64,000 nt of DNA from Candidatus Melainabacteria bacterium (GTDB lineage: Bacteria; Cyanobacteriota; Vampirovibrionia; Gastranaerophilales; Gastranaerophilaceae): contig CP091731.1 of assembly GCA_022009935.1 (NCBI GenBank), forward strand, positions 1,222,212-1,286,211. Direction: 5' to 3'. Under the pieces are notes generated by a model. The model was not told the origin of the DNA. It did not search any database and worked only from the letters and a program-made list of their open reading frames with translations. The position numbers and the translations under genes are program-made. Positions 7,232 through 32,900 of this stretch are shown piece after piece (the stretch's first letter is position 1; each line of letters begins with the position of its first letter).

Positions 7232-7239
7232 ATGTATAT

Positions 7240-10144: not shown

Positions 10145-11483
10145 AACAGTTAAAAGATTTTCAAAAAACAGGTGTAAAATTTATGATAAATAGGAGTACG
10201 GCATTATTAGCTGATGACATGGGGCTTGGAAAAACGGTACAAGCTGCAACGGTAATCAAAGAACTAAAATGCAAAAGAGCCTTAATACTTACACTTGCTA
10301 CATTGAAAATAAACTGGGAAAGAGAACTTAAACGTTGGATTAACGAAAAATTAAAATGTCAGGTCGTTTTACATGTTGCAGATAAAATAGATAAAAGCGC
10401 TGATATTATTATATGTAACTATGATTTGATTATTTATAAAGAAATCCGTAAACAATTACGTGATTTGGATTATGACGTAGTTATACTGGATGAAGCACAT
10501 ACATTGTCAAACAAAGATGCAAAAAGAACAAGAGCTGTCTACGACTCAAAATATGGGATTATCAGAAGTGCCAAAAGAGTTTATCCACTAACAGGTACAC
10601 CGGTTAGAAACCGCCCAAAAGATTTTTTATATTATGCTAAAAATATTGCCTACATTGCATAGAACCATATTTAAGTTATGAGGCATATGCGCAAAGGTAT
10701 TGCGGTGCTTATTATAATAGTTATGGTGTCTTGAATGACAAAGGGGCATCGAATATAGAAGAACTTGCGGAAAAAATTAAACCGTTTATGCTAAGACGTA
10801 CAAAAGATGAGGTACTAACGGAACTCCCACCTTTAATAGAAAAAACAATACCTTTAGAATTAACCTCGGAAATTGAAGGTGTGATAAATAAGGAACAGGA
10901 GCTTTATGAAAATATTAATGGATATAGCGAAAATTGCGAATTAGGAGTGCAGGCAACAACTAGAAGGCTTTTAGGGCTTGCAAAACTTCCACAAGTGATA
11001 GAATATGTACGGAATTTACTTTTAACACAACAAAAACTGGTGATATTTGCATATCATAGAGAGGTTATAAATAGAATTAGGAAAGAATTAAAAGGCTATG
11101 GTGTAAGAGTTGTTGCCGGTGGGCTTACACCTAAATTAAAGCAAATGGAAGTCGATTTATTTATAAAAGATGCTAATAGTCGTATTTTTGTAGGACAGTA
11201 TACAGCGGCAGGTTTTTGGGCTGGATGGTTTACAAAAGCCGCAAGCCATATTGTTTTTTGCTGAAATTGATTGGGTGCCGGGGAATATTGAACAAGCCCG
11301 CGACAGAATAAGACGTATAGGACAAATAAACCCCGTAGTTGCCCACTATTTAATCATACCCAATACACTTGAAGATAACATGCTACAAGCAGTTATCAAG
11401 AAAAAACAAGTTATAGAGAAATTAATCTCAAAAAATGAGAATATATTGTCGGACATGAAAAAAAAAAGGGAGAAAAAGCATGA
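10141..11483 (+). CDS. SNF2-family helicase, frame changes
   Basis: DDMGLGKT (motif I), VILDEAHTL (DEAH), C-terminal QARDRIRRIGQ (motif VI). The end is inferred as TGA 11481-11483 overlapping the next ATG if the A10 run 11458-11467 is miscounted. Confidence 0.75.
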
Positions 11484-11951
11484 CAATCGAAGAAAACTTA
11501 GAAAAAATCGCAAATTCGTTGGAGAAATTGGTTAAAGTCCAAGAGGCTATGATTTGTATGGCTAATCGTACAAAATCAGAATATAGCCCTTCTGTTGAGC
11601 AAGCAAAAGAAGAGCCCAAAAGAAAACAACAAAAAAATCGGCAACTAAAAAAATGAACCACAATCAGAAGTTATCGAGCCGATTGTTGAAGCCGAACCGA
11701 TTACAACTGATGTTGATGATTTTATGGCAGAAGTTGAAAATGTACCGGAACCAACCAGAGTCTATACCCAAGATGATGTAAGAACCGCTTTTAGTCAATT
11801 TATAGCCAGATATAGCCAAGATAGAAACATTTCTATAAGTAAAGCAAAAGAAATCCTTACACAACATGGATGTCAAAAAGTGAATGAAATACCGGAAGAA
11901 AAATTTGAAATTATTATTAAAGAGCTTAATAACACAGGGAGGGATGAATAG
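11480..11951 (+). CDS. hypothetical phage protein (one frame change)
   Basis: ATG at 11480 after GGGAG (MTIEENLEKIANSLEKLVKVQEA...). Continues after an A-run as ...EPITTDVDDFMAEVENVPEPTRVYTQDDVRTAFSQFIARYSQ... Confidence 0.4.
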
Positions 11952-13255
11952 TGCCACCGATAACACATAGTAAAGTTGGTGCATCTTCATGTGAACGTTG
12001 GTGGAATTGTCCGGGGAGTAATGCTTTAATAGCAAAACTCCCACCGGCGGACTCTTCAAAATACGCGGCAGAAGGCACCGCGGCGCATAGTTTATGCGAA
12101 CATGTTCTTACAAATAAAATACATTTTAAAGCAAAATGGGATGCGCTCAATAGGATTGGGGAAAAGCTTGAAGTCGACGACTTTATTTTTGAAGTAACCG
12201 AAGAAATGGCGAACGCTGTAAATTTGTATGTAAAAACTATCATTGAAGATGCCAAACGCATAGGCTGTACTATTTATAAAAAATTTCAAATAGACAGTAA
12301 AATATATAATTCATCCGACAAAGGCATAAGGATTTTCAAGGGATATATATACCATGGGTAAATATTGAGCAAGACTTTCAGCTCACAAACATTGATAAAG
12401 GAAGCAAGAGGAACTAACGATGCTTCAATATTAGTGCCGGGTGAAACGCTTATTGTTTACGATTTTAAATATGGGGCAGGCATCCCGATTGAAGCAGTGG
12501 AAAATAAACAAATGCTTTATTATGCTATAGGAGCTGCAGGGGATAAACTGATGGACTTCAAGACTATTGAACTGGTGATTATTCAGCCAAGAGCAGAGCA
12601 TCCGATCGGCTCTATAAGACGTTGGGTAACAACACCTGAATATGTGGCTAAGTTTGGTGAAGAACTAAAAAACGTATTGCTGAAACAAGAAACCCGAAAG
12701 CTTTAACATTTGCGGGGAAATGGTGTCGTTTTTGTAATGCAAAACTTATATGCCCTTCTATGCGAGATAAGTCCTACGAACTTGCGAAAATAGATTTTCA
12801 AAAGCCCGTTAGTGAAAATAAAGTAAAAGCCCCAATGAATTAAGCAAGGGGAACTTAAATTATTTTTGGATAACGCCCAATTATTAGAAAATTATATTAA
12901 AGAAGTTAGAAATTATGCAGAAAAATTACTTGAAAGCGGTAAATCTATAGAAGGCTATAAACTTGTAAAATCTACTAAAACACATAGAAAATGGAACGAT
13001 AAAGATGAGAATATTGCCTCGATGCTCGAATTGGAATTGGGTGTTGATTATAACAGTTTATTTAATAAAACATTAAAAACCCCTTCTCAAATCGAAAAGA
13101 TGATAAAAGGTTCTAAAGAGATTTTAGCGAGTTATTGGTTTAGGCCGGAAGGCAAAAACATTCTTGTAAAAGAAGAAGACCAAAGAGAAAAGCAAGCACC
13201 GTCAGCTATTGCGGATTTTCAAAATTTTCAAAATATTGAAGATTTAGGACTATAA
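11951..13255 (+). CDS. DUF2800-type PD-(D/E)XK (Cas4-like) nuclease, frame changes
   Basis: GASSCERWWNCPGS...KYAAEGTAAHSLCE N-terminus, DFKYG core and C-terminal Cys cluster GKWCRFCNAKLICP. Usual partner of DUF2815 and PolA in this phage module. Confidence 0.65.
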
Positions 13256-13264
13256 AATAGCTAA

Positions 13265-13280
13265 TTGTCGAACAGAAAAA
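13265..13280 (+). promoter_or_regulatory. phage 16-nt box, variant TTGTCGAACAGAAAAA (copy 5)
   Basis: 15/16 match, 20 nt upstream of the ATG at 13301. Confidence 0.45.
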
Positions 13281-13300
13281 CACAAAAAGGAGAAAAGACC

Positions 13301-13858
13301 ATGGCAAATGGAAGAAAAATTGTTACGCCTGTTTTTAGGGCAAGTTTTGTGTATGTTTTACACCAAGAAAAAATGAACAAAGCGGAAAAGATGAATATTC
13401 AATCAAAATGATATTTGATAAAGACGCGGATTTATCAGAATTGAAAGCTATTATTAAAGAGGCTATCACGGATAAATGGGGCAGTAACCCACCAAGAGGG
13501 CTAAAATTACCGCTTAAAGACGGAAACAACAATGATACAAGCAAGTATCCGGAAGACAAAAGACAAATATGTTGCAAACGCAAAAACTACTATTGCACCG
13601 CCTGGGGTTGTAAATTCGCAAGTTCAACCAATAATGGATCCAAATGAGGTATACAGCGGTTGCTATATGAGAGCTACTTTAACCGCATACGCTTATGATA
13701 AAGGTGGTGGTAAAGGTGTATCTTTTGGGCTTCAAAACCTTATGAAAGTAAAGGACGGTGAGCCGTTATCATCAAGGGCGACCGCTGAAAATGATTTTGC
13801 GGCATTCGTTGGTGAAACCGTTGAGGATGAAGCGGATATCATGGGGGAAATAATTTAA
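13301..13858 (+). CDS. DUF2815-family protein (phage SSB-like), frame changes
   Basis: MANGRKIVTPVFRASFVYV...IFDKDADLSELKAIIKEAITDKWG...VYSGCYMRATLTAYAYDKGGGKGVSFGLQNLMKVKDGEPL. Confidence 0.6.
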
Positions 13859-15893
13859 TGATAAAAGTTCACTTAGACTTTGAAACGCGAAGTGAACTCA
13901 GTGTTGTGGATGTGGGCCTTGGCGTTATAGCCTTGACCCCTCAACCACAGTGCTTTGTTTATGCTACCAAATAGAATATCCGAATGGACAAACCCAATTT
14001 GCTACTATAACAAAGGATTTGTTCAACTGTTGGTTTGATAACTATGTTATGAGTTGTGTATACCCCGACCACAGAGCGGATATCGTTTGTATAGAAAAAA
14101 TTATCGAACTTGCAAAAGATAAAAATGTTAGATTTTTTGCTCACAATTCAATGTTTGAATATTGCATGTGGAATAACATACTGGCAAAGTCTTATCGCTT
14201 CCCTGAACTAAAGGGTTTCAACCGTTGGGAATGTACAGCAAGTAAAGCAGCTGCTCACGCATTACCTAGAGCGTTGGGAAAATGTGCTATAGCTTTACAT
14301 CTTACCCAGAAAAAAGATGAAGCCGGTAAAAGAATAATGATGAAAATGTCTAAACCAAAAAAATCAGTGCTAAAGATAAAACTATTTGGAATGATAAAAA
14401 CGAGGACTACGAAATTTTATACGATTATTGTAAACAAGATGTGGTAGTTGAGTCCGCTATTGATAACGCATTACCGCCTCTTATTCCGCTAGAGCGTGAA
14501 GTTTGGAAACTAGATCAGATTATTAACGCTAGGGGCGTAAATATTGATAGAGCGGCGTTAGATAAAGCAATAAAATTCGTAACGATATTTAAAGATAAAC
14601 TTAATAACGAATTGCTTGATTTAACTAGCGGTGCCGTTTCCAAAGCAACGGAAGTAGCAAAACTCACTCGATACATCAGGGACTTTGTGGACGAAACGGA
14701 ACTACCAAACTTAAACGCTACGAACATTACGGAATATTTAAAAGTCTGTACAGATTCTAAAATACGTAGAATATTAGAAATTCGTCAACAAGCGGGTAAA
14801 TCGTCAACATCTAAACTGGAAACAATGAAATTGTGTATATGTCCCGACGGAAATATACGCGATATTCTCATGTACCACGGAGCCTCTACCGGACGTTGGA
14901 GCGGTAAGGGGATACAAGTACAAAACTTCCCTCGAGGCGATAAGTCCTATGATAGCGACAAAGTTATCGAAGACTTAAAAACTCTTGATTATGATACATT
15001 TGAGTTTATATATCCTAATGTCGTGGACGCGATAAGTACGGCACTTAGAGGCTTTATCAAAGCAGAGGACGGGGAAGACTTAATCGCCGCGGACTTTTCT
15101 GCAATTGAGGCCCGTGTAGTTTTATGGCTTGCTGGGGCAGAAAAAGGACTAAAAGCCTTTTAGAGAGGGGGCAGATATTTATTGTGAACTCGCTTCCGAA
15201 ATATACAAACGCAAAATTACCAAAAGGATAAAGATGAACGACAATTAGGTAAAACCGGTGTTTTAGGTTGTGGGTACCAGATGGGGCCGGATAGGTTTAA
15301 AGCACAAGTAAAGGCGCAAACAGGTTTAGATATTTCAAGAGAAACCGCTGACTTAGTTGTAAAAACATACCGTGCGACGTATCCGGAAGTAGTAGCCTTT
15401 TGGTATACCCAAGAAAAAGCAGCTATAAAAGCAGTAAGAGAAGCAGGGCGTATTATTAAAGAAGGTCCTGTTATGTGGAAAGTTCAGGGCAAATTTCTAT
15501 ATTGCCGACTCCCGTCAACACGGTGTATTGCTTACTATGAGCCGATTGTTAAACCTATAGAAACAAAATGGGGGAGGTTAAAGAACAGCTGACTTTTATG
15601 GCTGAAAATTCCGTAACACGCAAATGGGAACGTCAACACACATACGGCGGTGCTATTGTGGAAAACATTGTACAGGCAACAGCTAGAGATTTAATGGCTT
15701 GGGGCATCTTAATCTTGAAAAACACGGATATAAAATCAGAATGACTGTACATGATGATGAAGTTGTAGCATCTTGTAAAAAAGGAACCGGGGACGTTAAA
15801 GAGTTTGAAAGACTTTTATGTACTACTCCGAAATGGGCGACTACATGTCCAATTGTTGCTGAGGGTTGGATCGGCGAGAGGTATAGAAAATGA
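13858..15893 (+). CDS. family A DNA polymerase with 3'-5' exonuclease domain, many frame changes
   Basis: Exo motifs HLDFETRS and FFAHNSMFEY. Pol motif A IAADFSAIEARVVLWLAG, motif B RQLGKTGVLGCGYQMG, motif C MTVHDDEVV. Confidence 0.8.
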
Positions 15894-16026
15894 TACAACA
15901 ACGTTAGTTTGTAAATCAAAATATTATTAAGAATATAGTAATTAAAAAGATATTTAACTAAACAAATGACACTAATCCCACATATACACTAGCAAGAAGC
16001 ATTAACGATTTTGACAATAGCAGATT

Positions 16027-16084
16027 GCGGGGCATCTCCTTAATATTCTAATACCCATTAAGCGTATACCGCCCCGCTTTTTTA
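16027..16084 (+). terminator. intrinsic terminator candidate after the polymerase gene
   Basis: GCGGGGC...GCCCCGC outer stem with inner CTTAAT/ATTAAG pairing, followed by TTTTTT. Confidence 0.5.
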
Positions 16085-16102
16085 ACAGAAAAGGAAAAAG
16101 AA

Positions 16103-17180
16103 ATGACAAAACCAAAAAAAGAAAAAATAACAGGCTATAAAGTTTTTTAACCACGATTGGACTTGTCGAGGTTTCAAGTATGAAATTGGCAAAACTTATA
16201 CACACGAAGGTGAAATATCCTTGTGTAAAGAAGGTTTTCACTTTTGTAAAAATTTAATGGATTGCTTTGAATTTTACGATTGTGTAACTTGGAACAAAAT
16301 TGCCAAAGTTGAAGCCTTAGGAGAAGTCAAAACAGACGATAAAAAATGCGTAACAAACAAGATAAAAATATTAGAAGAAATACCACTTGACAAAATTGGG
16401 GAGTATGTTCAAACTGATTTAAATACTGCTGTCAACGAGTCTTATGGTGTTAACCAGTCTAATGGTGTCAATTTGTCTGATGGTGTCAATTTGTCTGATG
16501 GTGTCAATTTGTCTAATGGTGTTAACGAGTCTGATGGTGTTAACCAGTCTAATGGGGTTAACTGTTCTGATGGTGTTAACTATTCTTATGGGGTTAGCAG
16601 GTCTAATGGTGTTGACGAGTCTTATGGCGTTAACCAGTCTAATGGTGTCAATTTGTCTGATGGTGTCAACGGGTCTTGTGGTGTCAACGGGTCTTGTGGT
16701 GTTAACAGGTCTGATGGTGTTAACAGGTCTTATGGTGTCAACGGGTCTTGTGGTGTTAACGGGTCTTGTGGTGTTAACAGGTCTTATGGTGTTAACTATT
16801 CTTATGGCGTTAACTGGTCTAATGGTGTTAACTTGTCTTATGGAATATTAAACTCTTATGGAGTTTCAAATGCTTTATTTTTAGCAAACAAACCACAAAC
16901 ATACACAATTTTTGGTAAAAATGTAACAAAAGAAAAGTTTAATGAAGTTTGGCAAATATTTCATAAAAAGCTTAACGGCTGGACACCAACATTTAACAAT
17001 TTAAAAAGTTTATACCTTAAATCCAGTTCTGATTGGAAATTGACCCCAATACCAAACGCAGAAGAGATAAGCAAAAAAGAAGCTTGGAGAAGTATGCCCA
17101 AAGAAGCCATTGAGTATATCAAATCACTTGAAGAGTTTGATAAGGATATGTTTGAAGAGATTACAGGAATTGAGGTATAA
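16103..17180 (+). CDS. phage protein with Cys/His N-terminal domain (DUF7666-like, from memory) and about 20 tandem 7-residue GVNxSxG repeats; one frame change near the start
   Basis: MTKPKKEKITGYKVF(N)HDWTCRGFKYEIGKTYTHEGEISLCKEGFHFCKNLMDCFEFYD, then NGVNLSDGVNLSDGVNLSNGVNESDGVNQS..., then a non-repetitive C-terminus. Confidence 0.6.
16431..16866 (+). repeat. 21-nt coding tandem repeat, about 20.8 units
   Basis: GGTGT(T/C)AAC-NNN-TCT-N(A/G)T periodicity. Variation is concentrated in two codons per unit. Confidence 0.9.
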
Positions 17181-17184
17181 AAAA

Positions 17185-17400
17185 ATGCGTAACCGTTGCA
17201 GAATTTGCCAAAATGTAATTGCAGAGCTGGAAAAATATGAAGATATTATCGAATTTGCAGAAAGAAACATAGAAGGTTGTTTGGGTTATTTAAAAAACAA
17301 TCCGGCAGTTCCCTGTGGTGCAATATATTTGCTTAAGGAAATACGGAAAAGTTTAGAAGAAAATAAAGGAGTAAAATGCAAATATCAAACGAAGTTTTAA
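17185..17400 (+). CDS. small Cys-containing hypothetical protein (71 aa)
   Basis: ATG at 17185 after GAGGT (MRNRCRICQNVIAELEKYEDIIEFAERNIEGCLGYL...). The ORF-track start at 17110 overlaps the previous gene. Confidence 0.4.
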   Translation: MRNRCRICQNVIAELEKYEDIIEFAERNIEGCLGYLKNNPAVPCGAIYLLKEIRKSLEENKGVKCKYQTKF

Positions 17401-17519
17401 TGCTTGGTCAAATAGATGAGCTGAAAAAGCAAAATAAAAGCCTGCAAAAAGAAAATCAAATTTTACGTAAAATGCTGTTTGAAGAAATGAACAAAACGTT
17501 CAATCAGGCAAAAAGTTAA
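17376..17519 (+). CDS. small coiled-coil protein (47 aa)
   Basis: AAGGAG SD. MQISNEVLMLGQIDELKKQNKSLQKENQILRKMLFEEMNK... Confidence 0.35.
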   Translation: MQISNEVLMLGQIDELKKQNKSLQKENQILRKMLFEEMNKTFNQAKS

Positions 17520-17543
17520 GAGAATTATTGGGGAATTGAGAGG

Positions 17544-18025
17544 ATGATTGAGAAATTAGTAATAGGAATAGACCCTGGCAAACATGGCGCAATCTCCTTT
17601 GCTTCTTTAAATGGTGATTTTAGAAAAGTTTTTGGTTTCAGTAAATACACAGAGCATGATATAAAAAACATAATTTTGGAGCATAAAGAATTTTTAGGAT
17701 ACAAACTAACCGCGTTTATTGAAGACGTACACGCAATGCCAAAAGACGGAAAAGTGCAAGCGTTCAGTTTTGGTAAAATTATGGTTTTGGATTGGTTTGT
17801 TAACAGGATTGGGCATCCCTTACCAAAAAGTTACCCCTTTAAAATGGCAAAGTGCACTTAATTTTAAAAAGTAGAGGGCTTGAATATAAGCAAAAGAAAA
17901 ACGTTTTAAAAGGCCATGCTCAAAGACTTTTCCCGGAACTAAACCCCACTTTAGAAACCTGCGACGCTCTGTTAATTGGTGAATACGGAAGACAAACGAT
18001 TATAAAGGAAATTAGAGGTTTGTAA
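17544..18025 (+). CDS. RuvC-like Holliday junction resolvase (phage type), frame changes
   Basis: LVIGIDPGKHGAISF...AFIEDVHAMPKDGKVQAFSFGK..., then in another frame GIPYQKVTPLKWQ...CDALLIGEYG. Confidence 0.55.
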
Positions 18026-18215
18026 TTGTGCATTTGTTAAAAATAAAAATGTATCTTATGAAAATACCTTAAAAGCTTTTCAAACATTTTATGATGAGCC
18101 ATTAAACAAAGATGATGCGCTAAAAATTCAAAAAAAATTTAATCGGGTTTTATATATATTAAGTAGGAGTAAATCTAAAATATCACAAATAAAAGATTTA
18201 TGTTAAAATTTTCTT

Positions 18216-19687
18216 ATGAAAAAAGTAGTTATTTATGCAAGAGTCTCCTCCAAACGACAAGAGGAAGAAGGGTATTCCATCCCGGCACAATTAAAATTTT
18301 TAAATGAATATGCAGCTAAAAAATGGTTTTGCAGTAGTCAAAGAATTTATAGATAGTGAAACCGCAAAAAAAGCCGGCCGCACAAATTTTAACGAAATGA
18401 TTAATTTTTTAAAAAGAATAGAACTGTAAACGCAATACTTGTAGAAAAAACGGATAGACTCTACCGCAATTTTAAAGACTACGTTTTGCTTGATGAATTT
18501 AAAAACCTAGAAATCCATTTAGTCAAAGAAGGTGGGATTATAAGCGAAAATTCCCGCTCACATGAAAAATTAGTGCATGGCTTTAAGGTATTAATGGCCA
18601 AAAATTATATCGATAATCTATCCGAGGAAATAATGAAAGGGCAGAAACAAGCCTGCGAACAAGGAGATTATCCCAGCAAACCACCTTATGGGTATTACCG
18701 ACCTAAAAAACAAATTTTAATCGACCCTAAAACATCAGGATACGTTCTAAGAGCTTTTAATTTATACTCCGAAGGCAATATATCTTTGGATGATTTATGT
18801 CAAAAAATGTTTAATGAGGGGTTTGTATATAGCGAAATAAGCCCCAAAATTCATAAAAAGTCAATTGTCAAAAATACTTAAAACCCTTTTTTATACGGGA
18901 AATTTTTTGTACAAAAATGTATTATACAAAGGTCGGCATGAGCCTTTAATCAGCATGGGTTTATTTGAAAAAGTGCAACTTGCTTTTAAAAAGACGGCAA
19001 GCCTGAAACACGCAGAAAACATCAATTTATTTATTCAGGTCTTTTTACATGTGCAAAATGTGGCTCGGCTATTGTTGGCGAAATAAAAAAAGGCAAATAT
19101 ATTTATTATCATTGTGCTGATAAAACCAAAAACTGTCCAAATAAAGGTATAAGCATAAAACAAGAGCAACTTGATAAGTATTTTGAGGAGTCGATTAAAA
19201 GAATTCAAATAACGCCCCAGCATAAGAAAGCTATTGTGGAAGCTTTAAAAGAGAGTCATAAAGATGAAGAAGAATATAATAAGTCTGAAATATTAAGGCT
19301 TACAAATAGGGCGGAGGTGCTTCGTAGCCGATTATCAAAAATATATGTTGATAAATTAGATGGTAAGATATCAGAAGATTTTGGGTTGAGAAAAATAACG
19401 AGTGGACGTTGGAGCATGCCAAAATTTTACGAGAAATTGAAGCGCATTCAAAAGCAAACGTGAATTACATGGCACAAGGCGCAAATCTGGTAGAACTTCT
19501 CGAAAACCTTTACACACACTACATTGAGCTCGACGACGCAGAAAAAACAAAAATACTAAAATATATCTTCTCGAACTTTTTGATAGACGGCCGAAACGTA
19601 AGCTATGAGTACGAAAAACCCTTTGACATTTTCGCCAAAGGACTGTCTCGTCTATTAAACTGGAGGATAGGAGATTCGAACTCCTGA
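18216..19687 (+). CDS. large serine recombinase (integrase), several frame changes
   Basis: MKKVVIYARVSSKRQEEEGYSIPAQ (catalytic Ser region), VEKTDRLYRN, recombinase domain PPYGYY, zinc-ribbon FTCAKCGSAIVGE...YYHC, coiled-coil C-terminus. The last 27 nt overlap tRNA-Ala in antisense. Confidence 0.8.
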
Positions 19688-19733
19688 CCCCCTGCGTGCA
19701 AGGCAGGTGCTCTACCAGCTGAGCTAATCCCCC
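19661..19733 (-). tRNA. tRNA-Ala (anticodon UGC)
   Basis: GGGGGATTAGCTCAGCTGGTAGAGCACCTGCCTTGCACGCAGGGGGTCAGGAGTTCGAATCTCCTATCCTCCA. Cloverleaf with a G3:U70 pair. CCA is not encoded. Confidence 0.9.
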
Positions 19734-19755
19734 AAGGAATTCACTTACATGTTTA

Positions 19756-19784
19756 ATTATAACATCAGCAAAAAAATTATGCAA
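19756..19784 (-). promoter_or_regulatory. promoter for tRNA-Ala (TTGCAT-17-TATAAT on the minus strand)
   Basis: The -35 element is at 19779-19784 and the -10 at 19756-19761, about 22 nt upstream of the tRNA 5' end. Confidence 0.55.
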
Positions 19785-19811
19785 CACTTTTTTTGGTTTA
19801 TATTAAATCGC

Positions 19812-20395
19812 TTTTTATATAAACCTAGCACAAAAAAAAACAAAGAAGTCCAATGGCTGACACTGCTTTATCTATAGACTTATGTCACAAGTTGCTTGAT
19901 TTTTTCTTTTTTTATATAAACCTAGCACAAAAAAAAACAAAGAAGTCCAAACTTGACTCTTCCTTGTTTTTTCGACTTTCTTAGCTAAATCTTTGCTTTT
20001 CTTCTTTTATATAAACCTAGCACAAAAAAGCAAAGAAGTCCAATGGCTGACACTGCCTTATCTATAAACTTATCCCACAAGTTGCTTAGATTTTTCTTTT
20101 TTTATATAAACCTAGCACAAAAAAAAACAAAGAAGTCCAAACTTGACTCTTCCTTGCTTTTTTCGACTTTCTTAGCTAAATCTTTGCTTTTTCTTCTTTT
20201 ATATAAACCTAGCACAAAAAAAACAAAGAAGTCCAAACTTGACTCTTCCTTGCTTTTACGACTTTCTTAGCTAAATCTTTGCTTTTCTTCTTTTATATAA
20301 ACCTAGCACAAAAAAAAACAAAGAAGTCCAATGGCTGACACTGCTTTATCTATAGACTTATGTCACAAGTTGCTTAGATTTTTTCTTTTTTATAC
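19812..20395. repeat. tandem array C: six 94-97-nt units with a common head and two alternative tails (order a-b-a-b-b-a)
   Basis: TATATAAACC unit starts at 19816, 19913, 20008, 20103, 20200 and 20294. The common head is TATATAAACCTAGCACAAAAAAAAACAAAGAAGTCCAA. The tails copy gene 3' ends (see findings). Confidence 0.9.
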
Positions 20396-20921
20396 CTTAG
20401 TCTTGTTGAAAGGTTGGTTATTGCACAAACAAAAAATCCCATAACACCAATACTAAACATAAATGGAATTAATGTTATTAACGATTTTTGCTTGATAAGT
20501 TTCTTATATTCATTTTTATATCTGTATTATTTTTGTCTGCAAGATTTTTTAGCTAATTTATTAAGTTCTGTAAATTTTACGACTTCTAAATCATTTTTAA
20601 GTGTTTCTTTGCATTTGCCGTTTTTTTTCAATATACGCTTAAATCCATTTTCAAAAAGTTCACTTCCCGATATAACATACAATCCGACAATCGGGTAACG
20701 AAAAGTGTTTCTATAAAATTTTCTTTCCCACGGTCATAAGCAGCACCAAAATATCCTAATCCCCTATTAATACACAAGATGTCAACTGTCCTTTGCTCAA
20801 ATTCAACTTTCCGTTTTCACTTGTATAATCAATACAAAAATATTTATTTATAAAATTTTTATATTTTTATTATTTTTGAAATTTTATCACCAGGTGAAAG
20901 TATAAATTCAGAAATATTCAT
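20374..20921 (-). CDS. hypothetical protein with C-terminal membrane helix, several frame changes
   Basis: ATG at 20921 overlaps the upstream stop (TAATG). Fragments are MNISEFILSPGDKISKII..., GLGYFGAAYDRGKENFIETLF..., ...LIPFMFSIGVMGFFVCAITNLSTRLRYKKEKI*. The stop at 20374-20376 lies inside the last array unit. Confidence 0.35.
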
Positions 20922-21536
20922 TATTGTCTTTGACTTACTTCCTTTTTAGCAAGCAAAATAGCACTCAAAATACTTAAAATCGATGCAATAAAAGCACGAA
21001 TTAAGTTTTTATATGCACTATTTTTTACTTTGTTAATTTTATTTTTATCTTCTTCTTTTTTGTCAAGTGATGCAATATTTACAAAATCACTTTGCTTGAA
21101 TGCTTTAATTGTAAGCAAATTCTTTGAAATAATTTAACGTAAAAACAAGAATTGGTATAATGAGTGATGTAAGTGCAATAGCTGCTTTTATTGGTATGAT
21201 TTTATTTTTAGTCGAAATCTTTTTTAATTTTTCATAACTTTGAGCTACTAATTTTTTTTGTTCAGAGGTTAACTTTTTTGAAAAAAGTTTGCGAAATATT
21301 TTCTCTCCCAATATTTGTGGTAAAAAATAAACAACGGCACTCTCTGCTGTTTCCAAAAATGTATTTTCAAATAAATCAGCCTTGCTTCTTGAAAATGCTG
21401 CTTTGGGAATAAGTTGTGTAGTTGTGTCCTGAATAAATCTTGATGTTGATAAGCCCGATGCACTTTCGTTGTGTGCAATAAATTTCCCAGCAAGTTTTAA
21501 TGGTAATGGTAATGTATTCAATAAATTATTTGTCAT
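20921..21536 (-). CDS. hypothetical membrane protein (one frame change)
   Basis: MTNNLLNTLPLPLKLAGKFIAHNESASGL... starts at the second ATG (21536) after AAGGAAAAAA. The C-terminal part ...FIASILSILSAILLAKKEVSQRQ* is in the adjacent frame. Confidence 0.45.
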
Positions 21537-21811
21537 ATTTTTTCCTTTTTTGTTAAAACTAAAAAACCTGTACATAAAGTGCAGGTTTAATTTATATTAA
21601 AATATAACAAATGTTACTACAGCCTGCACAATAATTATGCCAAGCTACGCCAACTTTTATTGATTTTATACATTACATTACTCATACTTTTATTATAATA
21701 GCAAATAAATATTATTCAATACCTATTTTATATTTATTAAGTTTTTTAAAAGCATAATTAATAAATCTGTCGAATTTAGAAATTCGACTAAAAACTAAGA
21801 CCTATTCTAAT

Positions 21812-22380
21812 ACATGCTTGTCTTCACTTCATCGTTCCAAATTATTGACAACTTTTTAAATAACGGACTTTGTGCGTCCAACAATTTGACTTTATCCACC
21901 AATGTGAATTGACTTTTGTTTGATTATAGCGTTGAAGTTCAATTAATACTTTTGTTAAACATTTTTTGTTTTTTCCGCCTGGGGCAGCGGATTCTACCCT
22001 AAAGGGCACCCTCCCTTGTACGGCTCGATTGCCATCTCGCCTACAAGAGGAGCTGTTGGTAGGGCGGAGTCGAGCGTTAGCGAGCGAGCCCGTAACAAAA
22101 CTAAAACAATGATTAGACTAAGAATTTAAAAAACGGGCTGCAATATAAAAAAAATCCGCTGGAGTGGAGCCTTGAAAAGGCGAAACGGAATGCAAGGATT
22201 GCGCTAAGCCAAATAATTTGGTATAACTAATTTTGAACAAATAACAACCCGACGTAATCCAAGAATCTGCCCTCATTTTATTCGGGCATCTGTCCTACGG
22301 CGGATTTTTTTATATACATGATGGGGACGGCTTCGCCGTCCCCACACTGCAACCCTCTTTGACATTCATAACTGAAAGTG
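21812..22380. repeat. non-coding mosaic of repeat modules (L, family-A core, GC-rich hairpins, K, M, H1)
   Basis: Modules are shared with 26126-27060 and 60224-60388: L 21812-21852, A-core 21897-21968, long GC hairpin 21975-22068, K 22153-22202, M (reverse) 22248-22303, H1 22323-22343. Confidence 0.8.
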
Positions 22381-22386
22381 TGGAAT

Positions 22387-22430
22387 AAAAAAAAGCAAAA
22401 GAAGTCCAAACTTGACTCTTCCTTGCTTTT
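22387..22430 (-). terminator. intrinsic terminator of pnp
   Basis: On the minus strand: AAGCAAGGAAGAGTC...GACTTCTTTTGCTT stem followed by an A/T-run (T8 in RNA sense), 10 nt after the pnp stop. Confidence 0.6.
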
Positions 22431-22439
22431 TCAATTTTC

Positions 22440-24572
22440 TTAGTTAAATCTTTGCTTTTCTTCTTCTGAAACACCTTTGATTGTCAAATTGACACGACCT
22501 TTGTCATCGATTTTAATAACTTTGACAATAACTTCATCGCCAATAGACAATTTGCTTTCAACGGTTTCAATACGTTCATTTGCAACTTGAGAAATATGCA
22601 CCATACCGTCTTTTCCGGGGGCAAGCTCAACAAAAGCTCCGATTGGTATAATTCTTACAACTTTTCCACGGCGAACCATACCCTCAACCGGTTTAAAAGT
22701 CGCATCTTCAATCATACGCATTGCTATATTAGCACCCTCGGCATCATTGCTTGTAATTGTAACATGTCCGTCATCTTGTATATCAATTTCAGCACCGCTA
22801 CATTCAATAATATTTTTAATATTTTTGCCTCCCGGACCAATAACAACACCAATATCATCAACATCAATGTTCATTGAATAAATGCGAGGTGCAAACGGTG
22901 ACATCTCTTTAGCAGGTTCAGTTATTACTTCACGCATTTTGCCAAGAATGTGCAAACGACCTTCTTTAGCCTGGTTTAAAGCTTGACGCAAAGTTTCATT
23001 GCTTATGCCTTTCACCTTCATATCCATCTGTAAAGCAGTAATGGCTTCGTCATTACCTGTAACCTTAAAGTCCATATCGCCCAAAAAGTCTTCAATACCT
23101 TGAATATCAGTCAGTACAACAGTTGCATCATCTTCTTTGATTAATCCCATAGCAACTCCGCCAATCATACATTTAACAGGAACACCCGCATTCATTAAAG
23201 CCATTGAGCTGCCACAAGTTGAAGCCATAGAAGTTGAACCGTTTGATTCCAAAACATCAGATGTAACACGGATTGTGTAACCAAATTTGTCCATATCAGG
23301 CAAAGCAGGAACATTTGCACGTTCAGCCAAGTTTCCATGACCTATTTCACGACGTCCCGGGCTTCTCAATGCCTTTACTTCACCTACTGAAAACCCAGGG
23401 AAAATGTACTTGTGCATATACGTCTTTTTAGTCAATGGGTCAACACCATCCAATTCAAGTGCCATTGAAGGTCCTGCAAGTGTTGCAACAGAAAGAACTT
23501 GAGTTTGCCCACGAGTGAATACGGCTGAACCATGAGCACGAGGAATTACCCCAACTTCACACCAAATCGGTCTGACTTCTGTTATTTTACGTCCGTCTGC
23601 ACGAACTCCCTCATCGATAATCATTCGACGCATTATTTTCTTTTCCAAATATTTAAACTCTTCAGCTATAAAATCAATGCCCGATTCATTTATCATTTTA
23701 TTTATTTCATCTTCTTCGCCTAAGGCTGCAACTTTTTCCTTAACAAGCGTTTTAGCTTCTTCAAGCTTATTTTGACGGTACTCACGGTCAAAATTATGAT
23801 AAGCATCATAAATCATATCATAAGCTGTTTCTTTTATTATTGAAGCCAAACGACTTGTGTCATAAGGATTTACAAATTCAGGTTTTTCAACCCCACACAT
23901 TTTAGCAAATTCAATTTGTGCTTGAACTTGTTTTTTATCTCAACTTGAGCAAACTCAACTGCGTGCATAATGTCATCTTCGGTCACAAAATTGCAACCGG
24001 CTTCAACCATAATAACACTGTTTTCAGTACCTGCAACAACTATATCCAAATCAGATTCTTTTGATTGTTGGTGAGTCGGGTTTGCAATATATTCACCATT
24101 AATACAAGCTACACGAACGGCACCGATAGGGACCTTCAAACGGAGCTTCTGTCAACATCAATGCAAATGAAGCACCCAACATTGCAAGAGTATCTGCTTG
24201 GTTTTCTTGGTCATAACTCATAAGTTGAGCCACGATTTGAACATCATTTCTATATCCTTTAGGAAATAAAGGACGAATTGGTCTGTCTATCAATCTTGAT
24301 ATTAATATAGCTTTTTCACTCGGACGTCCTTCATTTTTGGTAAATCCACCGGGAATTCGTCCAATAGCTGACATACGTTCTTCATAATCAATAAGCAACG
24401 GGAAAAAATCAATACCTACACGTGGTTCTTTTGCAACTGTTGCATGCACAAATAACATTGTATCACCACAACGTATTGTTACAGAAGAGCTTGCACTTCT
24501 TGCATATTTCCCTGTTTCTACTTCAACAACTTTTCCACCTATGGTAAGTTGTATTTTTTTACTTTCAACCAT
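22440..24572 (-). CDS. pnp: polyribonucleotide nucleotidyltransferase (PNPase), two frame changes
   Basis: Three ORF-track fragments (24099-24572, 23870-24139, 22440-23900) give a colinear PNPase: two RNase PH domains, KH, and S1 (GKVVRIIPIGAFVELAPGKDGMVHISQVA). One break is at the T6 run 23931-23936. Confidence 0.9.
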
Positions 24573-26125: not shown

Positions 26126-26514
26126 ATATGACGGGCTGCGGATTCGTCGTTGGCCGTCTTGGATTTCTTTCTAGCTCACAGAGCCGTGCCTTATGTGCCT
26201 TGCACAAGCCGGCACGGTCTGTTCGCTCCCCGGACTACGCCCGTTCAGAAATCCGCTTGCCTGATTGTGAGGAGAAAAGCGTTGCATCCGTGCGGAGCTT
26301 TAGACGAGGAAGCGACCCAGCTTCCGAGTATAAAGCGAAGTAGTTAATGACCGCCGTAGGAAAGACGACCGAATGAAATGAGGGCGGATGCCCCAGGCGG
26401 TAAAAAGCGTAAGCCGTGCGTAAAACAAAGCCAAAACGGCTCAGTTTTGGATTTGTTTGTAGCAGTTAATAGGCGACGGCGGATTCGCAGTTGGCCTTGC
26501 CTGATTGTGAGGAA
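26126..26514. other. GC-rich non-coding segment with long imperfect hairpins and module M copy A
   Basis: Much higher GC than the flanks. Extended hairpin 26167-26212 (AGAGCCGTGCC...GGCACGGTCT). M at 26351-26400. TTGCCTGATTGTGAGGA is repeated at about 26258 and 26497. The ORFs here have no SD and implausible composition. Confidence 0.6.
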
Positions 26515-26812
26515 CTGAACGGAGTGAAATAATTTTGTAAAAAAATTATGAAACGGAGTTGCATAGTTCCGAACGCTGCGTAATCCAAGATAAAAGAGTT
26601 TTCTTCGAAAACTCCACAGGAGCGAAAACTGAACGGAGTGGAACAATTTTGTAAAAATTGTGAAACGGAGTTGCATAGTTCGAACGCTGCGTAATCCAAG
26701 ATAAAAGAGTTTTCTTCGAAAACTCCACAGGAGCGAAAACTGAACGGAGTGGAACAATTTTGTAAAAATTGTGAAACGGAGTTGCATAGTTCCGAACGCT
26801 GCGTAATCCAAG
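26515..26812. repeat. 2.7 tandem units of 114/111 nt, each with two perfect 7-8 bp hairpins
   Basis: CTGAACGG unit starts at 26515, 26629 and 26740. Hairpins are ACAATTTT-GTA-AAAATTGT and GAGTTTTC-TTC-GAAAACTC. Unit 1 has the compensated variant ATAATTTT...AAAATTAT. Confidence 0.85.
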
Positions 26813-27060
26813 ACATGCTGTCTTCACTTCATCGTTCCAAATTATTGACAACTTGCAATCCTGCATTCCGTTTCGCCTTTTCAAGGCTACACTCCAGCGG
26901 ATTGCTGCGAACTTACGTGCTGGGTGTGCTGACGCACACACGGCGCACTAGTCAAAATTTGGCTAACCACGGCGGATATTATTTAATGCAGGGGGACGGC
27001 AAAGCCGTCCCCCTGCACCCCTTGGATATTCACAACTAAAAATGTGGAAAACAGAGCCAA
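26813..27060. other. GC-rich mosaic segment (modules L, K inverted, H1)
   Basis: L at 26813-26854 (same as 21812-21852). K at 26855-26905 (reverse complement of 22153-22202). H1 hairpin at 26988-27016, preceded by CCACGGCGG plus an AT spacer. Confidence 0.7.
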
Positions 27061-27096
27061 ACAAATGAGTGAACATTTCACGGGTTGCAAGGGGTT

Positions 27097-27371
27097 TTAT
27101 ATAACGGGCTAACGCGTGACAACTGATGCAGTCATTCACCAACGTGGATTGACTTTTACTTAATTATAGCGTTGAAGTCCAATAATGCTTTTTGTTAAGC
27201 ATTTTTGTTTTAGTTTTATATGACGGGCTAACGCGTGACAACTGATGCAGTCATTCACCAACGTGGGTTGGCTTTTGCTTAATTATAGCGTTGAAGTCCA
27301 ATTATTTTATTTTCCTCCAAATACTTTGTTTTAGTTTTATATAACGTGCCGTGGAATAACTAATTTTCACA
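27097..27371. repeat. family-A tandem units (2.3 copies) abutting the ispG stop
   Basis: TATATAAC / TATATGAC starts at 27097, 27217 and 27338 (120-121 nt period). The core is CACCAACGTGGATTGACTTTT...GCGTTGAAGTCCAAT. Confidence 0.85.
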
Positions 27372-29269: not shown

Positions 29270-29901
29270 ATTGTTTTATCCTTTTTCATTGTTAAGTATA
29301 ACACAAAAAAAGGTTGACTTTTTAGTGTCAACCTGAAGTAAAATAGTTTACGAGTGAGAGTGGAATATGTATTTATAGAATTATTATAGACATTTAAAAT
29401 GGTATTCAAATTCCCCTATTGTTTAGATTGTTTTTCCACATAGGCTATTATACTTTTATAAAATATTAAGAAATTGTAATAATTTAATAAATATTCTAAA
29501 GTTTTTGAAAAAAACATGTCGTAATTAAAAATATAAATAAATAGACAATTAGGGAAAATTAATGTATAAGTCATCAAAAACAAAAATGTTAAACAACATA
29601 TCACAAGGTGTAGAATTCATATTAAGAGGTGCGAAAAAAAGGCGGTCAATGGCTATAGCAGAAGCAAAAGCAGTGAACAATCAAAATTATAAATTGCAAA
29701 AAAAGCCATCTTATCGCTATTAAATAAAAGAATGAGAGTGTCAGTTTTTTTAATTTTATCTTTTAGGTTTCAAAAATATTTTATTTTGGAACCTTTTTTG
29801 TTGTTAAATTTTCGTAACAATTAATTTACATTGTTTCATATATTTATTTATCTGGTAAAATAATTTATATAAGTATTCATGTATATTAATTGTTTATAAA
29901 T

Positions 29902-32900
29902 ATGTTTGAAAATAATGAGGATAATGATAATTTAAATGAGTTTCTAAATGACGATAACTATAACTCGTCAGATACAGAAAAAATAATAAATGCCGTTTCT
30001 AAAGTTGAAGTCGGTATAATTTCTGCAGTTGCAGGTTTTTTTGAAAATATTTCCTTTATTGAAGAAACTCAAGCCATTGAAGATAATATAACTATAAACA
30101 CTTTAAACGTTATAAATGAAATTCAATCCTTGCGTGAAATTCTTATTAAACTGCCTTCAATAAAAAATATTAATTCAAATAGTGAAACTAATGACAACCA
30201 AAGTGAAGTTATTGAAAAATTAAATAATATTATTGAAACTTTAAAAGCTGTTTCAAACAGACCACAAGCACCTATTGAACCTAAAATAAATATTAATATT
30301 AATGAAGCATTAAAACCTTTAAATCAACAATTAGAGTCAATTAATTCTTATATAAATGAAATAAATTCACAAATCCAAACTTTAAAAGCACAAAATACAG
30401 AAAATATTTTAAATAAAGAAAATATAGAAGAAATTTGTAATGTTACCGAGGCAAATGGCAGTAATGGCAATATAATTGAGTCTTTAAATTTTCTTAATAA
30501 AAACCTTAGTCAAAAATTGCAAGAGGTGAAAAGCTTTGTCCAAAGCGAAAATAACAACAAACAAATTAGTGATTCTTTAAGCAATCTTAACCAAAACTTA
30601 CAAGAGGTGAAAAGCTTTGTCCAAAGCGAAAATAACAACAAACAAATTAGTGACTCTTTAAGCAACCTTAACCAGAACTTGCAAGAGGTGAAAAGCTTTG
30701 TCCAAAGCGAAAACAAAAACCAAGAAATTTGCGATTCTTTAAGCAACCTTAACCAAAACTTACAAGAGGTGAAAAGTTTTGTTCAAAGCGAAAACAAAAA
30801 CCAAGAAATTTGCGATTCTTTAAGCAACCTTAACCAAAACTTACAAGAGGTGAAAAGCTTTGTTCAAAGCGAAAACAAAAACCAAGAAATTTGCGACTCT
30901 TTAAGCAATCTCAACAATAATTTGCTTGAAATAAAGGATATAGTTGACACATACGAAAGTCAAACATGCGATAGGCTTAGCAATGATATACAAAATCTAA
31001 TAAAAGCTATTGAAATTAATGAAGATATTTATAACAATCAAACCCAAAATGATATTTTTGAAGCGTTAAATACTCTAAACAGTAAAATTAGTATAATTAC
31101 ACACACATATAATGAAACTGATGAAAATGACGTAAAAAACTTATTTGTAAGTATTGACGAAATTATAAATCATCTAAATTCACTTGATTTAAATATTAAT
31201 ACTATAGAGCAAAACCAAAATTCAATTGATGTAAAATATGAACTTGATAGTTTAAAAGAAGAACTTTCACAAATTATTGACGAAAAAACATCCCTTGTTG
31301 ATGAAAACCAAAGCTATAACGTTAATGAAATATTGACTGCTATAAACAATATAAAAGATAATATATCAAATTTAGATGATAAAATTAATGATGAAAGCAA
31401 AAATGAACAAGATGTCGCTTTTCGTGAAGAAATAAAAACAAATTTGACAAAATTATCACAACTTGTCGAGTATTCTTCCTCAACATCTTCAAGTACAATC
31501 CAAAACGAAATAAAAGAAGTCAAAGATACAATTATTGAATCCGTTGCCGGATTTTTTGCAAACTTTAATTTTGAAGAAGAACAAGAAACAATACAAAATT
31601 TTATTGTTGAAAATAAAAATGATATAAATGACAAACTAAACCAAACATTTATAAAACTTGATGAAAAATTAACACCAATTACATCAACAATACAAAACAT
31701 TGATATACTTAAAGAAAACGTAAGTCGCATTAACGAAATATTTTCAAAATCATCTAATGAATTGGATGACAACAATGACACATACAATTATACTTTTATC
31801 GACCTTGAAAATGATATTATAAAACTCAATATGATGTTGAATGATTTAACAACATCATTAAACCAAAATTTAGACGAAAACAAAACTACAATAAAAAATG
31901 AATTATCCAATGTAACAGAAATAGTAGAGTCATTCAAAAACGAAAATACGTCTTTCATTAAAGACGAAATATCAAACTTGTCCTCGGTTGTTGAGTCAAC
32001 AAATGATGACATTTCAAGCATTTCGAAACGAACAAATAAACTTATAATCTTAGCCGATGAAGCACAAAATGCTTATAATAATAATGTTGAAAAATTCAAA
32101 AATCTTACATCACAAATAATTGCTCAAATCAACAATCTTACAAAATTAGGACAGGATTTTTCAAATATAATAAACAAACAAAACCTAACATTAAACAATA
32201 TTAACAATCTAAACGAAGCTTTTATATACCTTGGAACTTGGATTGATGAAGTTGATGTAGTATTTAAAAATATACAAGAAAACGTTAAAACAACGGTTAA
32301 AAACGAAGATTTAAACCTTGTTCGTGTATCGGTTGAAGATAGGCTTAATAGCATTGAAAATGTTGTTTCAAATATTGAAAACTCCATAAATGATATGACG
32401 TTAAAACTTAATTCTTATGAAGAAATAAATGTTAATGTCGAAGATAAAATAGGCAGCTTTGATGAAATATTTGAAAATATTGAAAACAATATTAACGATA
32501 ATAACTTTAAAATAAATAATTTAAGCGAACAAATCGCTGATGTTGAAAATTCGTTTAATAATAATCTTATCTCAAAACTTGATAGGGTTAATGAAGTTAT
32601 TGAAGAACTTCAAAATTCATACGAAGAAACAAACAACAGCATCAATGAAAAAATTGAAACCATTGAGAATAATCTTAATAATAATGGTGATTATAGCGAT
32701 AAATTCAATGAAATTCTTGAAAAATTAAAAGAAAATGAAGAAAAGAATAACGAAATATCAAGAAAATTAGAAGAAAAAGAACAACTTTTTGAACAAATGA
32801 AAAACGATATGGACAATGTTCACAAGCTTAATGCCAAAGTTAACGGAATTGAAGATGTAATTTTACGCCTTGATAAAAAAATAACACGGATTGTTAATTA

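Follow-up and report, generated by a model that had tools for sequence, protein, structure and literature searches.

Organization of the spacer between geneX and tRNA-Ala

The DNA examined here is a 64,000-nucleotide stretch of contig CP091731.1 (hereafter the window) from a Candidatus Melainabacteria bacterium of the Gastranaerophilales, in which the spacer between a conserved gene, termed geneX, and a tRNA-Ala(UGC) gene is occupied by a tandem array of 3'-end sequences. Gastranaerophilales are uncultured, non-photosynthetic gut relatives of cyanobacteria that are known from gut metagenomes. The local gene order is pnp (24572 to 22440), geneX (21575 to ~20358), the array, a promoter-like site and tRNA-Ala(UGC), all on the minus strand, and every unit of the array has the orientation of geneX and the tRNA. 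The array spans 19816–20394 and consists of six head-to-tail units of 94–101 nt (starting at 19816, 19913, 20008, 20103, 20200 and 20294). The features of the locus are as follows, with units numbered in the direction of transcription.

22440–24572, minus strand: pnp, encoding polynucleotide phosphorylase; single-base homopolymer indels at ~24131 and ~23937 compensate each other
22389–22465, minus strand: native pnp 3' cassette (EEEKQRFN-stop, hairpin, T-run), the present-day relative of the b units
20358–21575, minus strand: geneX, a conserved membrane-protein-like Gastranaerophilales protein of about 393–405 aa, with several broken frames in the window
20294–20394, minus strand: unit 1, type a (GACATAAGTC variant), fused to the geneX frame and carrying its real last codons and stop
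20200–20293, minus strand: unit 2, type b, with the last eight pnp-like codons (KEEKQRFS-stop), hairpin of 12–13 bp, T-run and GTGCTAGGTTTATATA
20103–20199, minus strand: unit 3, type b (from alignment to the pnp end and folding)
20008–20102, minus strand: unit 4, type a (GGGATAAGTT variant; from comparison with L090–L096)
19913–20007, minus strand: unit 5, type b (from alignment to the pnp end and folding)
19816–19912, minus strand: unit 6, type a (GACATAAGTC variant without one T, i.e. ATCAAGC), the final unit before the tRNA-Ala promoter
19756–19784, minus strand: tRNA-Ala promoter-like site (TTGCAT-17 nt-TATAAT), kept in all related species, whether or not they have an array
19660–19734, minus strand: tRNA-Ala(UGC), whose 3' end is the attachment site of a serine-recombinase element
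18216–19687, plus strand: large serine recombinase gene, fragmented by frameshifts, with Resolvase and Recombinase domains; end of the element, outside the array

The first-pass annotation of this stretch had described six units with a common 38-nt head and two alternative tails in the order a-b-a-b-b-a on the plus strand (i.e. a-b-b-a-b-a from geneX to the tRNA), and this description was borne out by the sequence and by analysis with Tandem Repeats Finder. The latter detected a period of 97 nt (5.4 copies, score 619) and a period of 190 nt (2.7 copies, score 797), the higher score of the longer period indicating that the basic repeat looks like an a+b dimer. As all genes of the neighbourhood are on the minus strand, it is the 3' part of each unit that had been termed the "head"; its sharing among units stands but not its placement at the unit start. 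Read on the minus strand, each unit opens with a run of purines (AAAAAAGAAAAA or AAAGAAGAAAAG), followed by a handful of codons with a stop and by TTGGACTTCTTTG, and closes with a T-run and GTGCTAGGTTTATATA, such that the "head" corresponds to the descending arm of a terminator, the T-run and 16 more bases (the GTGCTAGGTTTATATA end). The first 16 nt of the head (TATATAAACCTAGCAC) had six perfect matches in the window, every one within the array, and eight matches when up to three mismatches were allowed (0.86 expected), the two additional ones lying outside the array. A slightly deviant head was observed in the unit at 20008 (AAAAAAGC in place of AAAAAAAAAC).

Relationship of the array units to the 3' ends of pnp and geneX

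Similarities of the two tails to gene ends were examined by BLAST within the window and by global alignment. Over an alignment of 68 nt, tail b and the pnp 3' end were 94.1% identical (E = 3.6e-25) and, when the tail was taken by itself, 92.9% identity was obtained over 56 nt (E = 2.8e-18), while global alignment of the b units with the pnp end gave 93–95% identity over 76 nt. The resemblance of about nine in ten over some 80 nt that had been estimated by hand was thus upheld, and the similarities to both the pnp and the geneX ends persisted once alignment statistics were applied. Read directly from the sequence, the b units encode the C terminus KEEKQRFS-stop as compared to EEEKQRFN-stop in pnp itself, and the EEEK residues of the pnp end are conserved across the order. 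Within the array the b units are 98–100% identical to each other and they are about 86% identical to the arrays of another species (L004/L104). The pnp sequence places the window in Candidatus Gastranaerophilales (Melainabacteria/Vampirovibrionia), and the nearest relatives at the species level, L001, L002, L003 and L004, encode pnp proteins with identities of 98, 97, 96 and 94%, respectively, to that of the window. Downstream of the pnp stop, both L001 and L002 have the hairpin and T-run of the b units and then GTG(A/C)TA(G/A)GTTTATATAA; as these pnp flanks carry the "head", the whole b unit corresponds to a copy of the ancestral pnp 3' flank. The native pnp flank in the species of the window stops right after the T-run and the GTGCTAGGTTTATATA part of L001 and L002 is missing.

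Tail a matched only other a units and the real geneX end in the window. Unit 1 holds the last ~11 codons of geneX plus the stop, confirming that tail a is the end of the neighbouring gene. The stop itself had been placed at 20374–20376 (KKEKI-stop) and this part of the description probably does not hold: the run at this point reads GAAAAAATC in the window and GAAAAATC in seven other assemblies of the same species, so that the stop at 20374–20376 probably stems from an extra A in a homopolymer. The true geneX stop is likely to be 20358–20360, giving a protein that ends KKEKSKQLV(G/T)-stop. A KQLV(G/V/I)-stop end is also found for geneX in species P0028 and P0035 and, in P0035, the geneX stop is directly followed by the tRNA-Ala promoter with no module in between. 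As the KQLV end is native in these species, the first ~30 nt of tail a are native geneX sequence. The a variant fused to geneX differs between strains, with GGGATAAGTT in six of the seven other same-species assemblies (L091–L096) and GGGATAAGTC in L090; the fused end reads LVT-stop in the window and LVG-stop in six of the seven.

No Pfam domain was matched by geneX, for which more than 1000 homologues were found in public data. An unbroken geneX of 393 aa (P0032/P0034) is present in other assemblies of this species with 99.1% DNA identity, and the fragmentation of the gene in the window is a probable consequence of homopolymer errors.

A shared putative terminator module

All copies aligned colinearly over ~95 nt in a multiple alignment. 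The 3' ~60 nt of the unit form a module (AAAAAGCAAGGAAG-GTCA-loop-TTGGACTTCTTTGCTTTTTTT-GTGCTAGGTTTATATA). Homologous copies make up part of both unit types and of the L004/L104 arrays, and also lie in the flanks of pnp and in those of geneX in L003, L102 and L097; every such copy was recovered by an nhmmer profile of the module at E values of 1e-13 to 1e-18. The first-pass annotation had suggested that gene ends were captured or duplicated together with their terminators. Duplication was corroborated, with one unit type coming from pnp and the other from geneX, but capture was an overstatement since the a and b units share this homologous module.

For the b units, folding energies of −20 to −21 kcal/mol (z about −2) were predicted, with a stem of 12–16 bp located downstream of the stop codon and directly before 8–9 T (U), as in intrinsic terminators. 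The a units folded no better than shuffled sequence (z about 0) and, in the window, have lost the ascending arm (GATAAAGCAGTGTCAGCC as compared to GATAAAAAAGAGAGGAAGTGTCAGCC in L003). Based on the hairpin and T-run, the b units should terminate transcription. The b hairpins were missed by a simple terminator rule because of their interrupted stem and few G-C pairs. Conservation of the hairpin was observed in 14 cassettes from five species, with just 1–2 covarying pairs. Searches of Rfam, performed at the gathering threshold for the whole window and at E ≤ 1 over 19600–22500, returned only tRNAs and the tmRNA and left the array unmatched, and a consensus promoter scan detected no sigma-70-like site inside the array.

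A 9-bp outer helix between AGAUUUAGC, in the copied stop region, and GCUAGGUUU, in the "head", was also seen to enclose the terminator hairpin (e.g. 19913–20007 and 13602–13791 of L004). This pairing is perfect in the array units of two species and contains two mismatches in the L001 and L002 pnp flanks. As a conserved structure the outer helix was rejected, being absent in L102 and L003 and dropped by RNAalifold.

Variation of the array within the species

Contigs from many samples were fetched using geneX proteins as anchors, by far the more productive route. A metagenome scan with a degenerate head (TTTTTGTGMTARGTTTATATA) yielded ten loci, nine of which were chance A/T-rich matches, with L090 as the sole true relative. 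Seven independent metagenome assemblies of the same species (L090–L096) bear a/b arrays at the same locus. Unit number ranged from two to at least six across these assemblies and the window, the counts for L091–L096 being lower bounds as short-read assemblies collapse or break tandem repeats, and the order of units differed between strains. From geneX to the tRNA, the arrays read as follows.

Window: a-b-b-a-b-a
L092: a-b
L091: a-b, gap, b
L093: a-b-a, gap, b-a-b
L096: a-b-a-b-b and onwards
L090: a-a-a-a and onwards
L094 and L095: a-b, then contig end

The contig with two units, L092, shares 5.3 kb with the window at 99.1% identity. Three mosaic units were found, each with its junction at a short homology: unit 1 of L090 joins the 5' half of an a unit to a b hairpin at AAGG, unit 5 of L093 switches from a b start to an a tail at AAGCAA, and unit 5 of L096 has an a-type purine run followed by b sequence. 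These mosaics and the strain-variable orders fit the earlier suggestion of template switching or recombination at shared sequence.

Single-base homopolymer indels split pnp, geneX (20374–21575), the recombinase gene (18216–19687) and many other genes of the window; in pnp, comparison with three relatives revealed an extra C in a C-run at ~24131 and one A missing from an A-run at ~23937. The frame breaks have the pattern of long-read sequencing errors rather than that of pseudogenes, and the lengths of A/T-runs inside the array units are consequently unreliable. Such clear errors might favour an assembly artefact (a chimera or a mis-collapsed repeat) as the source of the array. Against this, the seven independent assemblies, from different samples and assemblers, contain the same tandem a/b units at the same locus, which disposes of the concern over an assembly chimera, and short-read contigs break or bear N-gaps right there, as a real repeat predicts. 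Many of the geneX contigs are just ~1.5–1.7 kb in length and terminate within the array, as expected from repeats that break short-read assemblies on both sides. It would be very surprising if the array were an artefact.

Independence of the array from the neighbouring prophage-like element

The array had been reported to lie at a prophage/chromosome junction some 80 nt from tRNA-Ala. The distance was confirmed, with 81 nt between the array and the tRNA-Ala 5' end and 155 nt between the array and the attachment site, but the array is not at the junction since tRNA-Ala and its promoter intervene. The promoter-like site was read by eye and was missed by the consensus promoter scan. Fragments of DNA polymerase A, SNF2 and VapE-like genes are present to the left of the recombinase gene, indicating that the element is prophage-like. 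Its attachment site is the 3' end of tRNA-Ala (CCTCCA/CCA changed to CCTCCAGTTT), and the tRNA lies between this site and the array. Neither a further copy of this tRNA 3' end nor the sequence downstream of the tRNA in L092 was detected in a search of the window for the other end of the element, indicating that the element reaches beyond position 1.

The three same-species contigs that reach tRNA-Ala (L091–L093) have a/b arrays with no prophage after the tRNA, which is followed instead by a hairpin and an ADP-ribosyltransferase toxin gene. Serine-recombinase elements occur at the same tRNA-Ala in L105 and L119, where CCTCCACCA at the tRNA 3' end is replaced by CCTCCAATTT or CCTCCACATTT; the array is lacking from L105, and L119 has only geneX-type units. 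Array and element were therefore found in all four combinations, i.e. both (the window and L119), the array alone (L091–L093, L102 and L120–L122), the element alone (L105) and neither (L103 and others), indicating that the array is independent of the neighbouring prophage, which it probably predates.

These comparisons bear on the proposal that the units are integration or excision scars of this prophage or of earlier elements. A scar origin would be in keeping with the 155 nt that separate the array from the attachment site, with the status of the tRNA-Ala locus as an insertion hotspot (recombinase elements in L105 and L119, defence genes in L103–L109) and with the displaced pnp 3' fragment of L004/L104, which lies 2 kb from pnp and is superficially attL/attR-like. 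The proposal is contradicted by the same-species contigs that have the array without the prophage and by L105, with the element and no array; across strains with and without the prophage, the array does not track it. Moreover, the crossover occurs within the tRNA 3' end, beyond the tRNA and its promoter as seen from the array, no attachment-site or tRNA sequence is present in the units, and the L004/L104 arrangement is accounted for by a segmental duplication between paralogous genes. Serine recombinases leave a 2-bp overlap and not 95-nt duplications. We give scars hardly any credence as the source of the units.

Several further observations concern the element. The regions concerned are 1–19659 of the window, 3560–5095 of L105 and 2190–3270 of L119, and the 3' end of tRNA-Ala(UGC) is a recurrent site for large-serine-recombinase elements in at least three Gastranaerophilales species. 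The region after tRNA-Ala is hypervariable, with HNH, SNIPE, GmrSD and GIY-YIG genes in sister species (L103–L109). An 18-nt coding repeat (22.5 copies, 16439–16843) within an open reading frame (ORF) at 16221–17180 on the plus strand encodes a GVNxSx hexapeptide-repeat protein in the element.

Cassettes in sister species

Cassettes of this kind are variably present downstream of geneX in related species. No cassette follows geneX in P0014 and P0035, and one is present in L003, L102, L097 and the window. In the P0006/P0008 species, geneX ends KKEKAKV-stop within a pnp-type cassette that is repeated in tandem from two to at least five times, with two sub-variants and differences between samples. 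In the L003 species, geneX ends KKEKQKCQ-stop and its flank, always a single unit, matches the pnp cassette colinearly (EKQ(K/R)C(N/L)-stop being the end of pnp). Both L003 and L102 have geneX fused straight to a pnp-type tail (KKEK/QKCQ-stop and KKEK/AKV-stop, respectively), an arrangement that would be the outcome of an unequal crossover at the purine run that deletes the a unit and joins geneX to a b-type unit. The P0028 species has 1.6 a-type units in another genomic context.

In L004 and L104, three units accompany an orphan fragment of the pnp 3' end, which comprises 131 nt of coding sequence ending in IIKIDDKGRVNLTIKGVSEEEEEKQRFS and a stop. Fragment and units lie upstream of geneX and 2.1 kb downstream of pnp, flanked by two paralogous genes for repeat proteins. 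The order of pnp, R1 (minus strand), the pnp 3' fragment with units and R2 (minus strand), located at 11649–14884 of L004 and 1–2846 of L104, is what a ~2.1-kb segmental tandem duplication of the pnp 3' end, the module and the R gene yields. The proteins of the two paralogous genes are highly repetitive (KLKTINDVYINKLTGD repeats) and had no match in Pfam.

Other repeats in the window

Within the 64-kb window, nhmmer located related modules at pnp, geneX and atpH. Downstream of the atpH stop, the atpH-atpA spacer (60114–60786) contains an array of 4.4 copies of a 91-nt unit on the minus strand (60389–60786), with one further unit past an inserted element. In each 91-nt unit, the atpH stop is duplicated (TTGATGTAA) and accompanied by a related module (GAAGTGTCAAGATTGGACTTGATG, recovered by nhmmer at E about 1e-6) and by AAGGAAGGGTTATATAAA, a sequence that also precedes the atpA start codon as its ribosome-binding region. 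The length of this spacer varied from 117 nt (one unit) to ~520 nt in seven same-species contigs and is ~670 nt in the window. A third array, of at least 7.7 units of 122 nt and ending in GGGCGATAGCCCGTTATATAAAA, occupies 62636–64000 on the minus strand before the start (~62624) of an atpE-like gene (c subunit). Strain-variable tandem repeats are thus a general trait of the intergenic spacers of this genome, of which the geneX array is one instance.

The inserted element of the atpH-atpA spacer is GC-rich, varies in presence by strain, is located inside GGTTAT^TATAAA and had no match in Rfam; it may be MITE-like (miniature inverted-repeat transposable element) or IS200/605-derived. It belongs to a dispersed family of GC-rich structured elements with perfect hairpins such as GGGGACGGCGAAGCCGTCCCC, members of which also occur in L001, L002 and L003. 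Their locations in the window are:

~21850–22330: GC-rich element
26345–27332: GC-rich element
60250–60370: GC-rich element
62980–63200: GC-rich element
63600–63820: GC-rich element

The 122-nt array is interrupted twice by a ~330-nt GC-rich element beginning with TCCTCCGGACGGGGCAAC, and the pnp flank of L001 runs on into a 122-nt-type unit. More tandem repeats were detected at 30502–30915 (81 nt, 5.1 copies, inside a 1008-aa ORF at 29890–32916), 26513–26813 (111 nt, 2.7 copies) and 47818–48375 (123 nt, 4.5 copies).

Origin of the array

We consider it probable that the array is a strain-variable minisatellite, resembling the mycobacterial interspersed repetitive units (MIRU) and other variable-number tandem repeats (VNTR), whose ~95-nt unit is a 3'-end cassette multiplied by slippage or unequal recombination. 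Units would be gained and lost by replication slippage or unequal recombination with, as a 5' pairing site, TATA-AAAAAGAAAA (i.e. the RYKKEK codons of geneX, recurring after every TATATA) and, as a 3' pairing site, the 38-nt shared part of the unit (descending arm, T-run and GTGCTAGGTTTATATA). Ectopic recombination, gene conversion or template switching between paralogous cassettes is the probable route by which the pnp-type unit entered; the pnp and geneX cassettes, which are in direct orientation and 2 kb apart, would be the exchange partners, with transfer from pnp to the array as the likely direction. In their predicted role as intrinsic terminators, the b units would end geneX transcription ahead of the separately promoted tRNA-Ala, and the extra copies are probably neutral. 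As unit 1 is fused to geneX, reshuffling of units would alter the last residues of the geneX protein.

Several points weigh against this explanation. The proposed mechanism was deduced from sequence patterns, and the anchors for gene conversion are short (a purine run of about 7–11 nt at one flank, about 22 nt at the opposite flank), which would be marginal for a RecA-type process. The two-unit array of L092 may have been collapsed in assembly. An FS-stop end (TTTAGCTAA; AGC) is common to the b units of the window and the L004/L104 units, while the real pnp genes end in N or L before the stop; this difference suggests that the donor would have been an older or different pnp allele, and the FS-bearing copies would be old or would have moved between species, such that units may have spread horizontally. 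Finally, the persistence of arrays in several species together with an outer helix that is perfect in arrays could point to a selected function.

A different origin would be from self-propagating intergenic elements (MITE-like, or similar to the bacterial and neisserial interspersed mosaic elements, BIME and NIME) that are dispersed across the genome, insert at A/T-rich TTATATAA sites and secondarily give genes new C-terminal codons, a stop and a terminator, with pnp itself ending inside one. The module does occur at three loci at least within 64 kb (after pnp, geneX and atpH), the three window arrays contain TTGGACTT and have units that finish in G(T)TTATATAAA, both filled and empty sites are known among species (P0014 and P0035 as compared to L003, L102, L097 and the window), the GC-rich element of the atpH-atpA spacer is polymorphic inside its TATA-containing site, and the last residues of geneX in L003 and L102 come from the cassette. 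Such elements are nonetheless an unlikely source. The 16-nt head is confined to the array within the window and 12 of the 13 matches to GKTTATATAAA lie inside the two arrays and hence are not independent; nearly all TTATATAA matches were likewise within the arrays themselves and this sequence was dropped as a genome-wide boundary motif. The L004/L104 orphan extends 131 nt into pnp coding sequence and lies between paralogues, as a plain 2.1-kb segmental duplication predicts, the EEEK residues of the pnp end are conserved across the order, and neither terminal inverted repeats nor target-site duplications nor a transposase was observed. Even less plausible, in our judgement, is that the units, or the b units, are small RNA (sRNA) genes, i.e. 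tandem sRNAs of about 80 nt derived from a 3' untranslated region and ending at the terminator. Tandem sRNA families include LhrC1-5 and Qrr. The b units are compact modules of a hairpin and U-run from an mRNA 3' end, their conservation within the array and with the L004/L104 arrays is high (98–100% and about 86%, respectively), and the TATATA at every unit boundary could act as a −10 box; but the consensus scan found no sigma-70-like site in the array, the best −35 candidate read from the sequence (TTGTTT) is poor, no Rfam match was obtained even at E ≤ 1, covariation is almost absent (1–2 pairs), the a units fold like shuffled sequence, and copy number is freely variable with one sister species having none.

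Comparison with known repeat systems

The closest analogues of the array are the MIRU-VNTR loci. MIRU of mycobacteria were reportedly described by Supply et al. in 1997. They are direct intergenic repeats of about 40–100 bp at several loci, with ends overlapping adjacent genes and strain-variable copy number (PMC3184786). The comparison is one of organization, no sequence relationship being expected. Like MIRU, the array consists of direct intergenic repeats of ~95 nt that are co-oriented with the flanking genes, overlap a gene end and vary between strains. Unlike MIRU, it is a terminator cassette between a gene and a separately promoted tRNA rather than an intra-operon spacer, it alternates two unit types from two different genes, and three related loci are known so far. 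The atpH-atpA array is more MIRU-like than the geneX array.

The array also resembles BIMEs and neisserial intergenic mosaic elements in being a 3'/intergenic mosaic of a common short motif with alternating segments that can form hairpins. BIMEs (the clusters of repetitive extragenic palindromes, REP, in E. coli) and neisserial mosaics have been connected with termination, with effects at mRNA 3' ends and with recombination (PMC3184786, PMC3333891, bioRxiv 10.64898/2026.03.23.713779). REPs are GC-rich palindromes of about 35 nt, in alternating orientation and hundreds of copies, with REP-associated tyrosine transposases (RAYT), whereas the array has A/T-rich 95-nt units, all direct, that include coding sequence; no transposase or RAYT was seen in the ORF list, the sole place looked. 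The b units are similar to intrinsic (Rho-independent) terminators, which are sometimes known in tandem, in having a hairpin directly followed by 8–9 T after a stop, but six near-identical copies with coding ends exceed the needs of termination and the a units have no ascending arm. As with the gene ends displaced at island attachment sites (3' fragments of tRNA or tmRNA genes), extra 3'-end copies are found a few kb downstream of an intact gene; unlike these, the copies are 95-nt tandem repeats with no associated integrase and no correlation with the neighbouring element.

CRISPR arrays have a constant repeat, unique foreign spacers and cas genes nearby. A CRISPR array was rejected, as there are just two "spacer" types, both copies of host gene ends, and no CRISPR family was matched in Rfam. 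Diversity-generating retroelements have a reverse transcriptase nearby and repeat copies that differ mainly at adenines. Differences between the a variants were not confined to adenines, and no reverse transcriptase was noticed in the ORF lists, although no dedicated search was run. Literature searches returned no description of Gastranaerophilales repeats and nothing specific on tandem terminator duplications. The array is a bacterial intergenic minisatellite in a lineage for which no such description was found.

Significance

There is some chance, though we rate it as small, that the ~95-nt cassette is the founder of an undescribed family of amplifying intergenic elements in the Melainabacteria/Gastranaerophilales. 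If so, the family would have spread between loci (pnp, geneX and the atp operon) and between species, re-tailing genes with C-terminal codons, a stop and a terminator; its fast-evolving arrays would tune read-through into tRNA-Ala and atpA; and the AGAUUUAGC/GCUAGGUUU outer helix and FS-stop signature would reflect selection on the element itself.

As a minisatellite, the array exemplifies fast-evolving intergenic repeats in an unstudied lineage, with a history that is readable unit by unit. The end of the geneX protein shifts in small steps according to the fused cassette (SKQLVG-stop, SKQLVT-stop, QKCQ-stop and AKV-stop). Both the geneX-tRNA-Ala and atpH-atpA spacers explain short-read contig breaks in this organism and are VNTR markers for strain tracking in gut metagenomes. 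No new biological mechanism is revealed by the array, whose value is as a strain marker and as a record of the duplication and swapping of 3' ends and terminators.

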